From a virus (Duplodnaviria > Caudoviricetes): DNA of 64,000 nt. Below the pieces are notes generated by a model that saw only the letters and a program-made list of their open reading frames with translations, had not been told where the DNA came from and ran no database searches. Below are positions 11,313-51,407 of the stretch, piece after piece; the stretch's first letter is position 1, and each line of letters opens with the position of its first letter. The DNA lies in the IMG/VR virus record IMGVR_UViG_3300045596_000061, positions 32,565-96,564 of that record, one strand, 5' to 3'. The translations under genes and the position numbers were made by a program.

Positions 11313-12824
11313 TTATCCCTGCAATATTGCCGGAATTATTGACATAGTTCTAGTAGGATCAAGTACACATATGCCCAAAGTAGCCATTCTATGGATAGTA
11401 GCACTATCTTCATCATATGACATATAAGGATTACCTATCTGACCTGTGAATGGGTTTCTGATACCCCACTGATAGCCTCTATATTCATTCTGACCTTTAA
11501 TCTTACATTTGAAGATGTTAGGCTGATCCATAGTACCCATATACATAATATCATATCTATAAGACATAGCCACACCACCAAATGGTGAGAGTATCTTATT
11601 TCTTACAGGATCATCATAGAATGGGTCTACATCAATCTTAACTTTAACACCATTAGGTGCAATAAACTCTGTGAACTGGAATCCTGCACTAAGAGCATGA
11701 TCATTAAGCTTAGATTGTGTTTTCTGGACTATATTCAGAGAACTATTATCAAGAACAAACTGAGTCCATCCACTCACAGTCTCAAGTACTTTCTTATGGA
11801 ACTGAATAGCACCTCTTTCACCTGTCTTTACAATGAATACTCTATCACCAAAGTCAAGTTTAGCAGCACTGATTTCATATAGTGCATCTTCAAGCAACTT
11901 AAGAGAGAAGTTATTATAGTAAATAGTATTAGCTACCTCCATTTGCTCAAATAAACCAGCACCAGTCTTAATAGCACTTCCTGATTTACCAAAGTTCATG
12001 TATTCACCATTCTGATTTCTGTTACTTCTACCCCATGCAAGTGCATTATTCTTGTAGTCTGAGAACTGAGATTCAACCTCAAAATCTACATTGTGCATCC
12101 ACATCTTAGCAACATCCTTAACATATCTTCCATTAGTTTCCTTAGTAATAGGGATACCAACTGCAAGTTTCTTATTAAGCATATTTCCTGGAACTTTATG
12201 CTGTATTCTAACTACAGACCATTCATTTCTCATAGATACAGGAGAAGTAAATCTTACATCACCTACTTTTCTTGAGAGTTCCTTTTCAACAAATGCAGCC
12301 TCAATAGAGAATCTTTCACCTGCAAGTAATCTTTCAGCAGGACATCCAGTAGTATTACCTCCTGCAAGCTCTACCTTATATACTGCATTAGTTCCTTCCA
12401 TTCTAGGTTCTCCAAGGACTCTAAACTGATAAAGTTCATTAAGATTACCTACAATATATTCACCATCAGCAAACCAATCCTCACCAAATACCAAATAGAA
12501 TGGTGCAGTACCTGCACCTACATTTGCACCAGTAGAAACAACTACTGCGCCATTTTCATCTCTTGCTTCAATAAGAGGAATGTTTCTTCTTGAACTTCCA
12601 ATAACATCCCAATAATATTCATTATCATCATCAAATTCTCTAGTAGGGAACTGATTCAAGAATGTATCAAGAGTCTTTCCTCTATAGTAAGCTAGCAACT
12701 GAACCATAAGGTCAGTAGCTTTTTGTGGTGCCTGCTGAAATATTGAACCTAAGTGGTTCTCTTTAGTCAAGCCTTTCCAATGCTGGAAACCCACCATTTG
12801 AAATCTACCTAATTTTCCTGCCAT
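11313..12824 (-). CDS. Major capsid protein
   Basis: 503 aa; MAGKLGRFQMVGFQHWKGLTKENHLG N-terminus recalled as typical of crAss-like MCPs; position. Confidence 0.88.
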   Translation of the reverse strand: MAGKLGRFQMVGFQHWKGLTKENHLGSIFQQAPQKATDLMVQLLAYYRGKTLDTFLNQFPTREFDDDNEYYWDVIGSSRRNIPLIEARDENGAVVVSTGANVGAGTAPFYLVFGEDWFADGEYIVGNLNELYQFRVLGEPRMEGTNAVYKVELAGGNTTGCPAERLLAGERFSIEAAFVEKELSRKVGDVRFTSPVSMRNEWSVVRIQHKVPGNMLNKKLAVGIPITKETNGRYVKDVAKMWMHNVDFEVESQFSDYKNNALAWGRSNRNQNGEYMNFGKSGSAIKTGAGLFEQMEVANTIYYNNFSLKLLEDALYEISAAKLDFGDRVFIVKTGERGAIQFHKKVLETVSGWTQFVLDNSSLNIVQKTQSKLNDHALSAGFQFTEFIAPNGVKVKIDVDPFYDDPVRNKILSPFGGVAMSYRYDIMYMGTMDQPNIFKCKIKGQNEYRGYQWGIRNPFTGQIGNPYMSYDEDSATIHRMATLGICVLDPTRTMSIIPAILQG

Positions 12825-31949: not shown

Positions 31950-32573
31950 AAAAAGTAAGAGGCTGCCTTTAAAAACAATGGTCTAAAGTTCAGCCTCTGA
32001 TATTAGTTTAACCGAAATCACTAATATCTAAAAGTAAGTCTTTGACAAAATGAAGTATCTATTATCACTAACTGATGCTACTAACTATAATAAAAATTAT
32101 TACTAAAACCTTGTATGTTAATCCCTATTTAAAACTCATATTGACTTACTTTTATACTTTAATACAGACTTAAAATTTATATTAAAACCAAACAAAATAA
32201 TCTTAAATAATAATGTTATTATCAATCAAGCACAATAATAATTACCTGACGTTTTTATCCATCATCTGATGTAATTTAATTATAGCCACTGCTAATTTAT
32301 ATTTACACCCTTTGCTTATACTATTAATAGGGGGCGGTTATTATCTACTTTTATTGTAGTTTTATCTTGAACTCCTCTTTACCTCAACCTCTTTCTCATC
32401 ATCTTGGTGGGAGACCCCAGTTTATGTCATATAAGTTTTTCAAGTCCTAAGAGATGTATAACTACTCTATGTATAGGTGAGCAGGTCACTCTTTATGCCA
32501 ATCTAACTCAGGTGGTATTCCTTCAGTTTCATTTACTGTAGATTGAAATCTCTGGATGAACAGGGATTAACTG
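31950..32573 (-). ncRNA. Candidate large structured non-coding RNA of unknown family
   Basis: No long ORF; promoter right upstream; several long-range 8-11 bp complementary pairs (see findings). Confidence 0.45.
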
Positions 32574-44248: not shown

Positions 44249-45139
44249 ATGGCAATAGCTAAAGGAAAAATCTCAGAAGAAGCTAAAGAAGTAAAAAGAT
44301 ATTATGGTGTAGCTCCCGTATTTATTTTAGGAGTTAATCCATCTAAGGAGGAGCTTGAAGGTATTTATAAAACAAACCTTGATAAAGACCCTGAATATAC
44401 AGGCACTAATAAAGAGTCTGGAGTTAAGAACATAAGGCTTGATTTCATAGTAAAGGCAGACAGTGAAAAATGTGACTCTGATATGACTACTAAAGTCTCT
44501 ATGTTCCTTGAAGACAGTAAAAGATATAATAGGGATAAGACAAAAATTCAGGTCATTGATAAGTATGGCAGAACTGCATGGGTTACTTCTGAAGAGTATA
44601 AGAATAAGGAAATTCCTATGTATAAGAATGGTCCTGCTAACCTTGATTCTGACTACAGAGCTTGCTATGTAGGAGAAGAGAACCTAACACAATTTATAGC
44701 TTTCTATCTGAATATTCCAAGTGTGATGACATACAAGGACAGCAAGTGGGTTATGTCAGATACTCCTGAAGAGAGTGAAGTCAGACTTGATAGAATAGAA
44801 GACTACTTTAAAGGAGATGTGTCTGAGTTAAGAGAAGCTATTAATTTGCAGCCTAAGAATAAGATTAAGATTATGTTCGGAATAAAGACTACTGATGATG
44901 GAAAACAGTATCAGGATGCCTATACAAAGAGGTTCTTAAGGAATGATGCCTCTAACTATAAGAGTCTTTATGAAGATGTACAGCAATCTCAGGAAGCATC
45001 TGCATATTCTCATACTACCTTTCTGTTTGATAAGATAAAAGAGTATAATGTTGAAGCTACCGATTTATCAAAGAGTGACAGTAAGGACTTACCTTTTGAT
45101 GATACTGCTGCTCAATCTCCTTGGGGATTCTCAAAATAA
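44249..45139 (+). CDS. Putative single-stranded DNA-binding protein
   Basis: Between recombinase and primase; acidic DLPF tail; IDKYGRTAW. Confidence 0.6.
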   Translation: MAIAKGKISEEAKEVKRYYGVAPVFILGVNPSKEELEGIYKTNLDKDPEYTGTNKESGVKNIRLDFIVKADSEKCDSDMTTKVSMFLEDSKRYNRDKTKIQVIDKYGRTAWVTSEEYKNKEIPMYKNGPANLDSDYRACYVGEENLTQFIAFYLNIPSVMTYKDSKWVMSDTPEESEVRLDRIEDYFKGDVSELREAINLQPKNKIKIMFGIKTTDDGKQYQDAYTKRFLRNDASNYKSLYEDVQQSQEASAYSHTTFLFDKIKEYNVEATDLSKSDSKDLPFDDTAAQSPWGFSK

Positions 45140-46239: not shown

Positions 46240-46926
46240 ATGGAAACAAGAAAAATTACAGTTGTTTCAACAAAAACACAGAGTAAGAAGACTATTATGT
46301 CTAATGCAGCCACATTAGGAGAGTTAAAAGTAGAATTGACAAACAGCAATATAGACTTTAAGGATATGGCTTTCTTTGAAGGAGTATCTAAAACAAGTCT
46401 TATATCAGATGATTCTGCTCTTCCTCATGACATACCTTATAAAGGTACTATTACTAATGACTTAGTTATTATGATAACTAACTCAAGGAAGAAGATTTCA
46501 AGCGGTGCTGACAGAAAAGCTATTTATCAAACTATTAAAGACCTTAACTTACAGGAAGTTTGTAAAGCAAAGTTTGGTAAAAACTTTACAATGTGCAAAA
46601 CTGATGACTTACTTTCAGTAATAGCAGAAAATAAAAAACCTGCTGAAGGAAAACCTGCTCCAGAAATGAGGGCAGAAAAACCGACTACTGACAGTGAAAC
46701 TATGAATGCTGTTCCTGTAGAGTGTGAAGATGTAAAAGCTCGTAAGGCTATCACTGCTTTATGTGACTTACTAATGAACAGTGATGCTATAGACGACTAT
46801 GATGAAGATGATCTTGAAAAGATTAAGAATAACCTAAGTACACATACAAAGTCTGACAAAGAACTTTGTATTGGTGATTCTCCATATTCAGATGCTGAAA
46901 TAGATGATATGATGGCTTCAATGTAG
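46240..46926 (+). CDS. Putative ubiquitin-like (beta-grasp) protein precursor
   Basis: Residues 1-89: two strands, TLGELK helix, LP, LVIMIT strand, ending KKISSG89; helical/acidic extension follows; upstream of E2/JAB/E1-like genes. Confidence 0.55.
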   Translation: METRKITVVSTKTQSKKTIMSNAATLGELKVELTNSNIDFKDMAFFEGVSKTSLISDDSALPHDIPYKGTITNDLVIMITNSRKKISSGADRKAIYQTIKDLNLQEVCKAKFGKNFTMCKTDDLLSVIAENKKPAEGKPAPEMRAEKPTTDSETMNAVPVECEDVKARKAITALCDLLMNSDAIDDYDEDDLEKIKNNLSTHTKSDKELCIGDSPYSDAEIDDMMASM

Positions 46927-46948
46927 ACTTTAAACTCTATGATAACAC

Positions 46949-46989
46949 AATAAGGGGACTTAATAATAATTAGGTTCCCTTATTTTTTT
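46949..46989 (+). terminator. Intrinsic terminator between Ubl-like and E2-like genes
   Basis: aataaggggact/ggttcccttatt followed by T-run. Confidence 0.7.
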
Positions 46990-47005
46990 GTTAATTATTC
47001 ATATT

Positions 47006-48376
47006 ATGAAAGAAATAGAAGAAAATAAAGACTTAAAAACAAAGCTCTTACTTAGTACTCTTGTCACTAATGCATTCAATGAAATGATGCATGTACCATC
47101 TGAAATTGAAAAAATCTTTATAGATTATTATGGAGAAGATAGAGTTGATATGACATGTACAAAGACTAAAGAGGATGTTGAAAACATGCTTCTGAGGACA
47201 CAATTACATAGTTTACTCTATCCTAGTTCAGAAGAGGAGAAGGGAATATGTGATGCTTTAAGTGAAGAGGATATAAATTTAATAGATTTAGATACGGATG
47301 ATACTTCTTTTACTATAATCTATAATATGATAGTTACATATATAGATAGGATAATAAGTAGAATAGCACCATTATTTACTATAACAGTTTACTTTCCTAA
47401 CATAAGGGTCACTAATGAATATGGTAGATTTGTAGATATTACTAAATTATTTACAAGAACTACTATAATGTGGGACGGAGAATTGGTAGATAAGTTTCAG
47501 ATAAACAGGTCTGAATATACTAGTTCTCAGTTTTCTTCAGGATATAAGCACAGTCATACTTACTCATTAGACAGTAATAGCATACAAGCATTAGAGCAGT
47601 TTACCCCTCCTTGCTTAGGAAGTGGTCCATTAAACACTACTATAGCTACTCTAAAAAATAGAACTGACTATACTATATGGAGATTATATTGCCATGAAAT
47701 GGATGAATATCTTAAAGTTGAATCTATTTCCGGAGGTCCTTATATAAGACTTGAAGAAATTGGAAAACTGAATTTATTTCTGAATACAGTATCAATAGAA
47801 AGTGCTATTTGCCATAGAGATGATGTCAGTGTGCCAGATTATTTAACTACAGATGAGTTTAAACTTTTTATAAATGATTTTATTAAATCAGGATTGATAA
47901 AATTTGTACATCATGATAATGGAGTAGCCTTAGCAATGTCATCACTGGATTTTTGGATAATGGCTAGTAATTTCTATATAAAATGGTTCAACAGTCATAA
48001 AGACTCATTTAGAAAAGGGATAGTAAATCAAGCATCAACTATGTATCCTCTTAGAAAAGCTGTAATAAGAGGTGATAAAGTTTACTTTGGCAACTTCTAT
48101 AGTACAGGAACAGAGTTTGAAGGAATAACATTATTCACATTTAAAGGTAAGGATGTTAAGTTACATATAATAGATGATGATAGTAATATAGAAGATAATA
48201 CAACTCTATTATTGCATCATACATTTATAAGAGCCTTACTCTATGCTATAATGAGAGTTATTAATTATTTATATCAGAAACCAATAGAACAGAATTATGA
48301 AAAAAGAAGAAATAGAGATAAAGGAGAAGAAAGCACAGGAAGTACAGTTATTACAGAACATGAATTTCTCCTCTAA
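47006..48376 (+). CDS. Putative prokaryotic E2-like protein
   Basis: YKHSH...FTPPCLGSGP (Cys codon 47612-47614) resembles the E2 HPx...CL active-site flap; probable ATG 47006. Confidence 0.5.
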   Translation: MKEIEENKDLKTKLLLSTLVTNAFNEMMHVPSEIEKIFIDYYGEDRVDMTCTKTKEDVENMLLRTQLHSLLYPSSEEEKGICDALSEEDINLIDLDTDDTSFTIIYNMIVTYIDRIISRIAPLFTITVYFPNIRVTNEYGRFVDITKLFTRTTIMWDGELVDKFQINRSEYTSSQFSSGYKHSHTYSLDSNSIQALEQFTPPCLGSGPLNTTIATLKNRTDYTIWRLYCHEMDEYLKVESISGGPYIRLEEIGKLNLFLNTVSIESAICHRDDVSVPDYLTTDEFKLFINDFIKSGLIKFVHHDNGVALAMSSLDFWIMASNFYIKWFNSHKDSFRKGIVNQASTMYPLRKAVIRGDKVYFGNFYSTGTEFEGITLFTFKGKDVKLHIIDDDSNIEDNTTLLLHHTFIRALLYAIMRVINYLYQKPIEQNYEKRRNRDKGEESTGSTVITEHEFLL

Positions 48377-49607
48377 AATTATTATACCTGAAAAGGTAGA
48401 ACTTAAAATAAGATATGTATGTAGTAAGGAGTGGAACAATGAGTGGTCAGGAATATTATTTTATAAGCCAGAAGGAAATTATAAAGATAATAATATAGTT
48501 ATTACTTGTCATGATTTTATTATTCTTGACATAGGTAATAACACATTTACTGAGTTTGAGCTTAATCCTGATGTTATTGCATATATGACAGACCATGATT
48601 TACTTGACTGTAAGACTGGCTTAATTCATTCACATGATACAATGGCTACATTTTTCAGTGGAACTGACCAAGATACCTTAAGAAAAGAAGGAGCTAATAT
48701 GAATAATTTTGTCTCTTTAATAGTTAATGATAAAGGAGATTATACTGCTGCTATGACAAGAAAAATAAGAATAGTAGAAAATGTATCCTCTATAGAAAAC
48801 TATGATTACTTTGATTGTGGTAGTAAGAGTATGAAATCAGAAAGAAAGAGAGAGAGCAATATCATAGAATGGCACTATCTGAATGTAAATAAGGAACTAG
48901 TATCAGTAAACACAATTGATGTAGATAAGCAGCTCTTTAAAATAAAAGACAGACAGGAGAAAGAAAGAGAGAAAGCAGCAAGCTATCAGAATGGAATTAG
49001 TCATCCTAATAATTTTATAGGAGAACATAAAACTATAAACCTATTCTCACCAAGAAGTAAGGTTACTCCGATACAGAGAGGATATAATGCTTATGATGAT
49101 CCTGATAGTCCATTATATTCAGGAGATGATGAGTATGACAGTCCTAATTTATTCAGTAAAGATGAATCATATAATAATACCTTAAAGGAAGAGAAAAAAG
49201 CTCCTGATAAGGAATTTACATCTGATGATTTACAAAGTATCTATCATATTCCATTAAATAATGATGTAATCAACTCTCTTCTTTTAGAGATAGTTACAGG
49301 AAGTGTAGTAGTTTCAAATAAGAGTAAGATAGATATTATAAAGTGGTCTTCTACTATGAACAGTGTATTTGATACCAGATTTAATTATGAAAAAAATGGA
49401 ATGTGGTACTTTGAAATATGGATGGAAGGTTATATTGACTCCTTATTATCTGAGGTAACTGAACAAATACCTGAAACAGAAGAGTATGATGGTGATGCTA
49501 TTGAAAGTGTAATAGCTTCAAGTCTTATAAAAGAGCTGCAAACTATTCCAGGAAATAAATATATAAAGACTATTATAAACATATTAAATTCACATATTAC
49601 ATGTTAG
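48297..49607 (+). CDS. JAB/MPN+ metallo-isopeptidase
   Basis: EWSG plus complete JAMM motif HSH-x7-S-x2-D (HSHDTMATFFSGTD). Confidence 0.88.
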   Translation: MKKEEIEIKEKKAQEVQLLQNMNFSSKIIIPEKVELKIRYVCSKEWNNEWSGILFYKPEGNYKDNNIVITCHDFIILDIGNNTFTEFELNPDVIAYMTDHDLLDCKTGLIHSHDTMATFFSGTDQDTLRKEGANMNNFVSLIVNDKGDYTAAMTRKIRIVENVSSIENYDYFDCGSKSMKSERKRESNIIEWHYLNVNKELVSVNTIDVDKQLFKIKDRQEKEREKAASYQNGISHPNNFIGEHKTINLFSPRSKVTPIQRGYNAYDDPDSPLYSGDDEYDSPNLFSKDESYNNTLKEEKKAPDKEFTSDDLQSIYHIPLNNDVINSLLLEIVTGSVVVSNKSKIDIIKWSSTMNSVFDTRFNYEKNGMWYFEIWMEGYIDSLLSEVTEQIPETEEYDGDAIESVIASSLIKELQTIPGNKYIKTIINILNSHITC

Positions 49608-50617
49608 ATATAGGTTATTCAGCAACAACAGATGAAAATGATGAAACTGCTCAACCAGAAGAAACAGCAGAATCAAGTACAGAAGATGCCACTGTAGTGA
49701 CATCTGCAAGTACTGCTTCAGATAATTCAGTAGATGTAGATGAAGTAGTAAACAGTGCTTATATTAATGATTTAGGAGAAACTAATTATGCTGCCCTTAC
49801 GAGAGCAGTTGAAGAAGCTAATCCTATAGGAATACAGGCAGAGCATACTAGTGAAGCTCCAAGGGTAGTAAGTGATTCTATACCTGAAAACTCAGAATCA
49901 TTAAGTGTCAAAGAGAATACTTCAAGATTCAGTAGTGCTATATGGTTTGAAGAAGCAAAGAATCAAACAATACTATTAGCAGGATTAGGAGGAATAGGAA
50001 GCTATACTGCATTTCTATTATCAAGGTTGCAGCCTCGTCAGTTACGATTATATGATAATGATGAGGTAGATGCATCAAATACATCAGGTCAACTGTATTC
50101 TAGTAGCTCTATAGGTACTAAAAAAGTATCTGCAATAGATAATTTTATAAAAACATATTCTTCTTATTATAGGTCAGACTTATTTAGTAGTATGTTTGAC
50201 GGTAATACTCCTTCATCTGATATAATGATTTGTGGGTTTGACAGTATGCAATCAAGAAAGACTTTCTTTAATTCATGGCGTGCTAGAGTAGATATTACTT
50301 ATGAATCTAATAGGAAAGACTGCTTATTCATTGATGGCAGACTATCAGCAGAAGAATTTCAGATTTTTTGTATTAAAGGTGATGATGAGTATAATATAAA
50401 CAGATATGCTAAAGAGTTTCTATTCTCTGATTCTGAAGCAGAAGCTACAATATGCAGTTATAAGCAGACCTCTTTCTGTGCAAATATGATAGCATCATAT
50501 ATTGTAAACTTGTTTATAAACTTCTGTGCTAATAAATGTCATCCTTTAGTTTTAAGAGATTTACCTTTCATTACAGAGTATAATGCAGAAACAATACTAT
50601 TAAAAACAGAAAATTAA
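49601..50617 (+). CDS. E1/ThiF-family adenylyltransferase
   Basis: GLGGIGS, DNDEVDASNTSGQ, GFDS..SR, IDGR, candidate catalytic Cys in TICSYKQT (codon 50453-50455). Confidence 0.88.
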   Translation: MLDIGYSATTDENDETAQPEETAESSTEDATVVTSASTASDNSVDVDEVVNSAYINDLGETNYAALTRAVEEANPIGIQAEHTSEAPRVVSDSIPENSESLSVKENTSRFSSAIWFEEAKNQTILLAGLGGIGSYTAFLLSRLQPRQLRLYDNDEVDASNTSGQLYSSSSIGTKKVSAIDNFIKTYSSYYRSDLFSSMFDGNTPSSDIMICGFDSMQSRKTFFNSWRARVDITYESNRKDCLFIDGRLSAEEFQIFCIKGDDEYNINRYAKEFLFSDSEAEATICSYKQTSFCANMIASYIVNLFINFCANKCHPLVLRDLPFITEYNAETILLKTEN

Positions 50618-50618
50618 T

Positions 50619-51407
50619 ATGACAGATGCTTATAGAAGTATGATATTGTCTTCTTTACACCCGTTTATGGGATATGACAGAGGAATAATACACTCCTTAC
50701 TAGTTAGTAATGATATATTTTGTAACTCTATACTATATACTGTAAAGCATAATGAACCCTTTGAGATTCCGACATATGTAGACTTGGAAAGATGTGAAAA
50801 CTGGGATATTTCAGATACTAAAGCAAGAGATATTGTAACTAACAGTAAGAATATAGTACGGTCATTCCCTTTATACTATAGAGGATGTGAAGAAAGCAGA
50901 TGTACAATACAAAGTGCAATAAAAGGCACATTTGATAAGACAGCAATAGTATCAGGAGTAAAAAAGGTGAATATTACTGGAAAAAATCCTAATACATATT
51001 ATGGTGGAAGTGGATTAATATTAGATAAGAACATGAATCCGCTGGTTATGTTAACTTCTGTTTATAATATAATAGAAACTCAGACTATTAATGCTTTAGG
51101 TGATAAAGCCTCCTCCTATCAAGTAAGAGGTACTAATAAATATATATTTCATGTTAATCCTGTGCTATTCTCTGATACTAAAAGCCCATTAAGCAGAACT
51201 ATAATAAATGATTTTATACCTGTATATCTGGAAGAATCAAAGGGTGGAGTAACTGAAATAAAGATTTCAATAGATGAAATGGGTGGATTCTTCTTACATA
51301 ATAAGGTACCATCTGAAGTTGCAAAAGAAGATTTTAATAAAGTATTTAGTGATAAATTATTAGAAAATACTGATTTAGTGTCTTCTCTATTCTTAAGTTT
51401 CACATAG
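50619..51407 (+). CDS. Hypothetical protein co-transcribed with E1-like gene
   Basis: Starts 1 nt after the E1 stop; YYGGSGLILD..MNPL. Confidence 0.6.
   Translation: MTDAYRSMILSSLHPFMGYDRGIIHSLLVSNDIFCNSILYTVKHNEPFEIPTYVDLERCENWDISDTKARDIVTNSKNIVRSFPLYYRGCEESRCTIQSAIKGTFDKTAIVSGVKKVNITGKNPNTYYGGSGLILDKNMNPLVMLTSVYNIIETQTINALGDKASSYQVRGTNKYIFHVNPVLFSDTKSPLSRTIINDFIPVYLEESKGGVTEIKISIDEMGGFFLHNKVPSEVAKEDFNKVFSDKLLENTDLVSSLFLSFT

Follow-up and report, generated by a model that had tools for sequence, protein, structure and literature searches.

A candidate ubiquitin-like conjugation pathway encoded among the replication genes of crAss-like phages

Described conjugation systems and the phage gene block

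To our knowledge, ubiquitin-like (Ubl) conjugation in bacteria, as in the CBASS Cap2/Cap3, Bil and Bub systems, has so far been described as host anti-phage immunity. Here we analyze a block of five genes, P1 to P5, in a 64,000-nucleotide stretch (the window; positions 32,565 to 96,564) of the Caudoviricetes record IMGVR_UViG_3300045596_000061 from IMG/VR, and we lean towards reading it as a phage-encoded Ubl activation and conjugation pathway. The module is closest to Type I Bub and Bil and is a member of neither. Bil consists of the Ubl BilA, the E2 BilB, the JAB peptidase BilC and the E1 BilD, occurs as types I and II, and defends the host by tagging phage tail proteins (10.1101/2023.09.26.559546; Hor et al., 10.1101/2023.09.04.556158). 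In this system, BilC cleaves BilA after a conserved Gly (10.1101/2023.09.26.559546). Type I Bub, formerly 6E.1/DUF6527, is made up of BubAB, BubCD and BubE; Gly229 is the residue after which BubCD cleaves the BubAB Ubl fusion, Bub has a minimal E1 that forms homodimers, and BubB is a diverged UBC fold without the canonical motifs (Ye et al., 2024, 10.1101/2024.11.21.623953).

The virus record is 96,564 bp long (estimated completeness 95%), has a G+C content of ~30% and a strand skew that flips near 33 kb, and carries the block in its rightward replication block. As the initial annotation of the window had it, four consecutive co-oriented open reading frames (ORFs) are found on the + strand, namely P1 (46240-46926), P2 (47006-48376), P3 (48297-49607) and P4 (49601-50617), and a fifth, P5 (50619-51407), follows in the same orientation. 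The whole block (46240-51407) is situated between the genes for DNA primase and uracil-DNA glycosylase (UDG). P3 overlaps both the stop of P2 and the start of P4, and P4 and P5 as well as P5 and UDG abut. Translation of P2 could begin at ATG 47006 or at an open TTG at 46988; the former matches the database copy and is most likely the start.

A comparison of gene order across relatives, which the initial annotation had proposed, was run on 83 loci, comprising 80 IMG/VR loci fetched with a P2 profile (291 confirmed) and three annotated phages. The order and strand of P1-P2-P3-P4 are identical in every one of them, including the cultured crAss001, relatives of DAC15 and the distant FpV4, and the association of these genes is thus not due to chance. 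In crAss001, the counterparts are Gp79, Gp78, Gp77, Gp76 and Gp75, flanked by primase (Gp80) and UDG (Gp74). Its GenBank entry calls Gp77 a "metalloprotease" and Gp76 a "thiamine biosynthesis protein, ThiF", the only two genes that are named, and another record has "E1 enzyme family protein"; this agrees with the earlier remark that ThiF and MPN genes have been named singly in crAss-like phages. The order in the Flavobacterium phage FpV4 is primase, UDG, gp53, gp52, gp51, gp50 (ThiF) and gp49, with gp53 to gp50 syntenic with P1 to P4. Using P4 and P2 as tblastn queries, we obtained matches in cultured Steigviridae as well as in metagenomic crAss-like phages, namely in crAss001, DAC15/DAC17, the PhiCrAssBcn isolates, Kehishuvirus, Kolpuevirus and several metagenomic phages, and the ThiF-like P4 gene was matched in 29 records of Flavobacterium psychrophilum phages of the FpV4 type. 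No description of the module in crAss-like or other phages was found in the literature searched, whose coverage was incomplete.

How does this locus compare with the described systems? The order of the four genes, encoding a Ubl precursor, a candidate E2, a JAB peptidase and an E1-like protein, is the same as in Bil. The Bil modifier likewise extends past a conserved Gly, and JAB removes the extension (a removal that we predict for P1); neither system has an E3, and the BilB Cys has conserved His residues nearby, as does that of P2. In contrast, BilD is a large E1 of the IAD-AAD-CYS type whereas P4 is a single domain of ~230 residues, and the extension after Gly comprises up to 9 residues in BilA but 139 in P1. 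Moreover, no PADLOC model recognizes P1 or P2 at E values up to 1, the BilD model matches P4 only over the nucleotide-binding stretch, and Bil belongs to the host whereas the phage module is virus-borne. Similarities with Bub include the N-terminal location of a Ubl in a larger protein, from which JAB frees it after a conserved Gly (again a prediction for P1), a minimal UBA5/ThiF-like E1 adenylation domain as in P4, and an E2 that has diverged from the canonical motifs as the candidate P2 has. However, JAB and E1 are fused in Bub but are separate proteins from adjacent, overlapping genes here; the Bub Ubl is fused to the E2, that of P1 to a passenger which is not an E2; and Bub forms oxyester intermediates on Tyr and Ser, whereas P4 and P2 each have an invariant Cys. 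Bub also includes a DUF6527 protease, of which none was detected here (P5 has no Pfam match at E values up to 0.1), and it is located in a bacterial defense island rather than among viral replication genes.

Two further kinds of system share parts with the module. The archaeal SAMP/UbaA/HvJAMM1 system (and Pyrococcus JAMM1-SAMP2) has counterparts of P1, P4 and P3 in a small modifier with a beta-grasp fold, one minimal E1 and a JAMM protein, but it has no E2-like partner, doubles as a sulfur carrier, and uses a modifier that terminates in GG and bears no large passenger. In ThiF/MoeB-ThiS/MoaD and CysO-MoeZ-Mec+, a ThiF-family domain with a crossover-loop Cys acts with a beta-grasp partner, as P4 might with P1, and in the CysO and Qbs systems JAB trims the carrier, as P3 might. 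Because the module lacks defining features of Bil, of Bub and of the ThiF/MoeB carriers, we consider it a separate architecture of the Ubl, E1, E2 and JAB kind.

The Ubl precursor and its predicted peptidase

P1, the homologue of crAss001 Gp79 and FpV4 gp53, has two parts. An alignment of homologues reveals strong conservation of the N-terminal 89 residues (46240-46506, + strand), which end in ...KKISSG89; the remainder (residues 90-228; 46507-46926), here called the passenger, comprises a small conserved helical part (FGKNFTMCKT), a variable low-complexity linker and an acidic tail (SPYSD.EIDDM). Among 34 non-redundant homologues, FpV4 included, only L54, L61, P62, K84, S88 and G89 are conserved at 95% or more, and the K-x3-S-G89 ending is near-invariant, its FpV4 gp53 equivalent being ...MRPKQVKSGG. 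In a low-confidence AlphaFold2 (AF2) model, the first 80 residues are arranged as strand, strand, helix, strand, strand. An exhaustive structural search with residues 1-87 returned a beta-grasp fold at every match, with the TINCR Ubl at the top (Z 5.7, root-mean-square deviation 2.1 Å, 57 residues aligned) and ferredoxins, MoaD, FAT10, the Dsk2 UBL, ubiquitin, Atg12 and UBX among the others. A second, independent model from the ESM Atlas matched ThiS/SAMP2 (TM 0.57/0.75) and a ubiquitin domain (0.67/0.67). Foldseek gave nothing significant against the PDB for the AF2 model, although its sub-threshold list also consists of beta-grasp folds. Searches with the P1 sequence (Pfam, PHROGs, PADLOC and PDB profiles) produced no informative match, PHROGs yielding only families without a function, and the passenger has no sequence match in Pfam or the PDB. 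Both models thus bear out the beta-grasp-like domain that had been proposed from the sequence, and by these models residues 1-89 are a ubiquitin-like beta-grasp with a conserved C-terminal Gly that would be exposed by a predicted processing step.

A natural candidate for this processing is P3 (436 amino acids; 48297-49607, + strand), with a JAB/JAMM (MPN+) zinc peptidase domain at residues ~30-170 and a C-terminal remainder of ~260 residues beyond it. The initial annotation had called the JAMM motif intact, and it is indeed complete: E49 (48441-48443) is followed by H111-S-H113, seven residues, S121, two residues and D124 (48627-48668), and each of E49, H111-S-H113, S121 and D124 is invariant in 19 diverse homologues. 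Pfam Prok-JAB matches P3 with an E value of 2e-4 and 21.7 bits, just below the cut-off of 25, and PADLOC JAB with 8e-4. The closest PDB entry to the family profile is Pyrococcus JAMM1 (PfJAMM1; E 1.2e-3), followed by an Rpn11-like protein and CSN5, all of which act on ubiquitin-like proteins. By motif and profile, P3 is therefore a member of the JAB/JAMM (MPN+) metallopeptidase family and a predicted peptidase.

Nature appears to have cut the P1 gene at the same Gly. Two loci of near-genome length, L052 and L065 (IMG/VR 3300045988_031580 and 3300045988_006353), carry an insert of ~555-570 nucleotides in this gene (L052:4937-5490 and L065:4876-5443), each with a homing-endonuclease ORF of the HNH/NUMOD type. 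The insert falls exactly after codon 89 (Gly) and before codon 91 (Met), splitting the gene at Gly89|Ala90. What is left is a 91-residue Ubl ORF that ends in ...KKI(K/R)SG and two further residues and, apart from it, a passenger ORF that starts from Met91. No group I intron was found at the split, either at the gathering score or at E values up to 1, while the same search recovered a group I intron further downstream in L065, beside a partial UDG match. The insert could represent a fission of the gene, or it could be an intron that escaped detection and had homed to the best conserved stretch of DNA in the gene. Whichever of the two applies, its position exactly at the junction marks Gly89 as a functional boundary of P1.

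Some further observations concern these and similar inserts. At L052:4948-4960, the HNH ORF has an in-frame TGA where L065 has Trp (MEI*KD... versus MENWKI...); either TGA is read as Trp in that phage or the gene is decaying. The group I intron of L065 (11115-11358; Rfam RF00028, 84.8 bits) is found just upstream of the sole UDG match of the locus (partial, 11575-11886), and three more loci (L048, L060 and L067) likewise show a gap followed by this short UDG match. Three loci (L038, L051 and L061) have ~570 nucleotides extra between the Ubl gene and P2.

Between P1 and P2 of the window there is a terminator-like hairpin with a 16-bp stem and a T tract (46949-46994, + strand). The same place holds a U-tract hairpin with a different stem sequence in many IMG/VR loci as well as in crAss001, bajarodcaudo virus 1 and FpV4 (L001-L040). 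Its retention across diverged phages with different stems suggests regulated read-through into the enzyme genes.

The E1-like protein and the candidate E2

P4 (338 amino acids; 49601-50617, + strand) combines a disordered acidic N terminus with a minimal ThiF/UBA5-type adenylation domain at residues ~106-338, which is recognized by Pfam ThiF (E 3e-14, 53 bits versus a cut-off of 28). The family profile is closest to UBA5 (9e-12), followed by PaaA, MccB, TcdA, Uba1, ThiF, NAE1/UBA3 and Cap2. We aligned the family with MoeB and ThiF of E. coli MG1655 and with two Cap2-like E1 domains. The nucleotide-binding GxGGIG motif is kept (GLGGIG, residues 128-133), D152 corresponds to the ribose-binding Asp (MoeB D62/ThiF D59), K175 to a conserved Lys (K86/K83), D214 to the Mg-binding Asp (D130/D127) and R219 to the Arg of the DxxxxR motif (R135/R132). 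Invariant C285 (50453-50455), with which the crossover loop ends, aligns with MoeB C187 and ThiF C184, and the Cap2-like domains have a Cys in this column too; C285 is found five residues ahead of the helix that follows the loop, in which Y269 is also invariant. At both CxxC zinc pairs, P4 has gaps or residues other than Cys. These results agree with the initial annotation, which had described a ThiF/E1 protein with nucleotide-binding motifs and a candidate catalytic Cys that lacks the paired CxxC. In minimal E1s, the catalytic Cys is located where the crossover loop ends. Judged by its motifs, P4 is a member of the ThiF/E1-like adenylating-enzyme family, and C285, being at the position of the thioester-forming E1 Cys, is a candidate catalytic residue. 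Peptide adenylation of the MccB/PaaA type and tRNA dehydration of the TcdA type were considered as other functions for P4; each ranks below UBA5 with the family profile and leaves the JAB protein and the Gly-ended beta-grasp domain unexplained.

Alternatively, P1 might be a sulfur carrier of the ThiS/MoaD/CysO/QbsE type that is trimmed by JAB (compare Mec+ and QbsD) and adenylated by P4, and whose thiocarboxylate is the sulfur source for modifying nucleotides, tRNA or DNA, with P2 as the user of that sulfur. A JAB protein, an E1 and a beta-grasp partner together are the hallmark of CysO and Qbs, and ThiF C184, the residue that aligns with C285, is the one that forms the ThiF-ThiS acyl-disulfide. 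P4 has the size of a minimal ThiF/MoeB protein, the fold searches with P1 retrieved ThiS/SAMP2 and MoaD, and the block is found among genes of nucleotide and DNA metabolism, all of which would suit such a carrier. We nevertheless hold this scenario to be improbable. Rhodanese, cysteine desulfurase (Aminotran_5), PP-loop ATPase (ATP_bind_3) and Pfam ThiS/MoaD are all missing from the entire 96.5-kb genome, whereas the same four families were found in 12-14 of 14 control genomes; the earlier statement that the window holds no sulfur-relay genes thus extends to the genome as a whole. Unlike the sulfur-carrier systems, P4 lacks both CxxC pairs, an equivalent of MoeB R73 and a rhodanese domain. The core of P2 resembles UBC/RWD domains and no sulfur transferase, and the tag bears a large conserved passenger.

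What, then, is P2? This Cys/His protein of 456 amino acids (47006-48376, + strand) has a UBC/RWD-like core at residues ~28-250 and a C-terminal domain at ~281-423 with only weak structural matches. The family is large (3140 clusters at 50% identity, E values up to 1e-3), and in PHROGs P2 matches only families without an assigned function. Twelve residues are invariant in 210 diverse relatives: N137, E138, Y180, H182, S183, H184, C203, G205, G207, P208, E239 and S240. The HSH and CLG elements noted at the outset are real (residues 182-184, 47549-47557, and residues 203-205, respectively), and FpV4 gp52 keeps them as YMHSH and FCIG. The codons that had been assigned to Gly89 of P1 (46504-46506), Cys203 of P2 (47612-47614) and Cys285 of P4 are likewise correct. 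In the AF2 model, which has a predicted local distance difference test score (pLDDT) of 76.6, rising to 86-98 over most of residues 121-240, the elements follow each other as long helix, strand, helical insert, three strands, HSH loop, Cys203, helix and helix, an order that fits an E2 with an inserted helical bundle. It also speaks for an E2 that the invariant Cys comes 11-24 residues past the invariant HSH and immediately ahead of a helix. A VIA search over 48,161 chains with this model gave UBC, UEV or RWD domains for ~40 of the 50 best matches (Z 4.2-5.8). Tsg101 UEV (Z 5.8) and Ubc8 (Z 5.6) are at the top, BRE, Ube2K, Ubc9, several RWD domains and FANCL are also included, and bacterial E2 domains are represented by Cap2 (7to3_A, Z 4.9, chain residues 9-154) and BubB (9eav_D, Z 4.8). 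A second structural look added UbcH5c and also UFC1, which is paired with UBA5 as its E2. For P2, the model from the ESM Atlas (pLDDT 0.32) is too poor for use. From the AF2 model, we consider it likely that the core of P2 has a UBC-like fold and plausible that P2 is a catalytic E2; the latter is graded lower because the superfold includes inactive RWD and UEV members. The initial proposal of an E2-like protein has thus gained fold-level matches that are mostly UBC/UEV/RWD, Cap2 and BubB included, but no link in sequence to any E2 family. A papain-like or NlpC/P60-like reading of the Cys/His pair was also entertained; no such fold is present among the structural matches.

If P2 were not an E2, P1, P3 and P4 might form a trio akin to SAMP, HvJAMM1 and UbaA, in which both the activation and the handover of the tag are left to the E1, P2 being a target, an adaptor or a Cys/His or metal enzyme. 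Such a system would be built from the well supported parts, Ubl, JAB and E1; it would accord with the lack of a sequence link between P2 and E2s, with the proximity of P3 to archaeal JAMM1, and with a fold search that places non-catalytic RWD and UEV domains level with true E2s. Yet the twelve residues that are invariant across 210 diverse sequences include one Cys and two His located after the beta-meander, a pattern that fits an enzyme rather than a scaffold, and the synteny of P2 is as strict as that of the other three genes. We consequently regard conjugation without an E2 as unlikely, if worth keeping in mind.

Cellular homologues of P2 are exceedingly scarce, with only two matches in 185,579 prokaryotic species genomes. 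The two, L084 (CAAGJD010000129.1) and L085 (JAZNOG010000003.1), come from genome bins that carry the labels Acholeplasmatales and Bacilli. The 94,451-bp contig of L084 is identical with that of the IMG/VR phage locus L032 and hence probably a crAss-like phage contig that was binned with a bacterial genome; L085 is in a bacterial bin. As far as could be seen, the P2 family is apparently viral.

A possible pathway in phage replication

How might these proteins act together? We envision a scheme, each enzymatic step of which we infer on top of the observed gene content, motifs, folds and synteny, whereby P1 is made as a precursor, its beta-grasp Ubl (residues 1-89) fused to the 139-residue passenger, and whereby the hairpin after P1 probably allows the tag to be made in excess over the enzymes. 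The JAMM protein P3 would cut after Ser88-Gly89, exposing the Gly carboxylate and freeing the passenger, in the way that BilC acts on BilA and BubC on the BubAB fusion. P4, a minimal and probably homodimeric E1, would adenylate Gly89, and the Ubl would then be transferred onto Cys285, where the crossover loop ends. P2, with its UBC/RWD-like core and its invariant His182, His184 and Cys203, would receive the Ubl on Cys203 and would hand it to lysines of phage or host proteins. It might do so without a separate E3, its own extra domains selecting the targets, and P3 may also reverse the tagging. For each of these steps, Bil and Bub provide a characterized precedent. From its fixed position between the primase and UDG genes, we suspect that the block has to do with replication or with the early takeover of the host.

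Several observations weigh against this pathway. The AF2 model of P1 is of low confidence (mean pLDDT 52.6), and the P1 passenger is a conserved 139-residue protein rather than a short propeptide. The Z-scores of 4.2-5.8 for P2 are under the background best of 7-8 stated for the tool, and the weight of the fold evidence for P2 is consequently carried by the one-sidedness of the match list, single scores being below background. Foldseek found no match in the PDB for the AF2 model of P2, and comparisons with E2 families by Pfam, PADLOC, PDB profiles and hhalign yielded no sequence or profile match. With hhalign, the P2 family and two Cap2 E2 domains gave a probability of 0.1%, in a weak test with two reference sequences only that does not itself count against an E2; Pfam Prok-E2_B was found in only 2 of 401 genomes. 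P2 has HSH in place of the HPN motif of E2s, its invariant Cys follows HSH by 11-24 (mostly 15) residues, the canonical E2 spacing being ~8-10, and the UBC/RWD superfold has many non-catalytic members, RWD and UEV domains among them. In P4, invariant Gly163 stands where MoeB (R73), ThiF (R70) and the two Cap2-like E1 domains have Arg, that is, the canonical ATP-phosphate Arg of SNLxRQ is absent. Judging from the alignment, this absence, invariant in the P4 family, is a trait of the family and not decay, and it means that adenylation cannot simply be assumed. An R227A mutant of the adenylation domain of BubCD, whose R227 may or may not be the counterpart of R73, served as an inactive control (10.1101/2024.11.21.623953). 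Of the whole protein-tagging cascade that the initial annotation had put forward, the Ubl, JAB and E1 assignments have thus held and the E2 has gained support from its fold, whereas P2 has acquired no sequence link to E2s and the E1 lacks its canonical Arg. On balance, a conjugation pathway is still the reading that we favor, with some reserve.

The module, or its JAB protein by itself, might instead undo or jam Cap2/Cap3 priming of CBASS, Bil or Bub in the host, by cleaving conjugates or by offering a decoy Ubl. Such host systems do act against phages and are under the control of JAB peptidases, and P4 weakly matches the PADLOC models of Cap2 and BilD. These matches, however, cover only the generic nucleotide-binding part, and a decoy would need neither an intact E1, nor a conserved Cys/His protein, nor a fixed place in the replication module across Bacteroides and Flavobacterium phages. 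We rate counter-defense as very improbable, and it is compatible with rather than opposed to a conjugation pathway.

The fifth conserved gene, P5 (262 amino acids; 50619-51407, + strand), is a homologue of crAss001 Gp75. BLAST recognizes it at this slot in 58 of the 83 loci; the others have a divergent ORF there. Apart from the absence of a Pfam match, P5 has no match in PADLOC or the PDB, and PHROGs is uninformative. Its resemblance to FpV4 gp49 is confined to a weak 24-residue motif (probability 2.8%). Upstream of the primase, a 296-amino-acid protein (44249-45139, + strand), the homologue of crAss001 Gp81, ends in ...DLPFDD..., and FpV4 gp49 ends in ...EDLPF. Both ends (observed at window 44249-45139 and L003:7666-8754) resemble the acidic tips of single-stranded-DNA-binding proteins; the tail of the P1 passenger is acidic too.

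We tentatively propose that Steigviridae-type crAss-like phages and distant Flavobacterium phages run their own E1-E2-type tagging as part of their replication program, that the tag is cut from a precursor in two parts, the other of which is a functional protein in its own right, and that proteins of the replisome or of the host are modified. Steigviridae-type crAss-like phages are among the most abundant virus groups of the human gut, and the proposal, if true, would give a function to four or five genes that thousands of gut phage genomes list as "hypothetical" or under a wrong name. A third architecture, with a minimal Cys-bearing E1, a Ubl-passenger precursor and a large E2-like protein, would thereby enter the account of how ubiquitin signaling evolved. 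Phages such as crAss001, DAC15 and FpV4 are cultured and genetically accessible and thus offer a tractable experimental system. A complete and strictly conserved set of Ubl, E2-like protein, JAB and E1 in their replication module would show the virus side to be equipped with the same chemistry and, if our reading is true, prokaryotic ubiquitin-type conjugation is used by viruses as well as against them.

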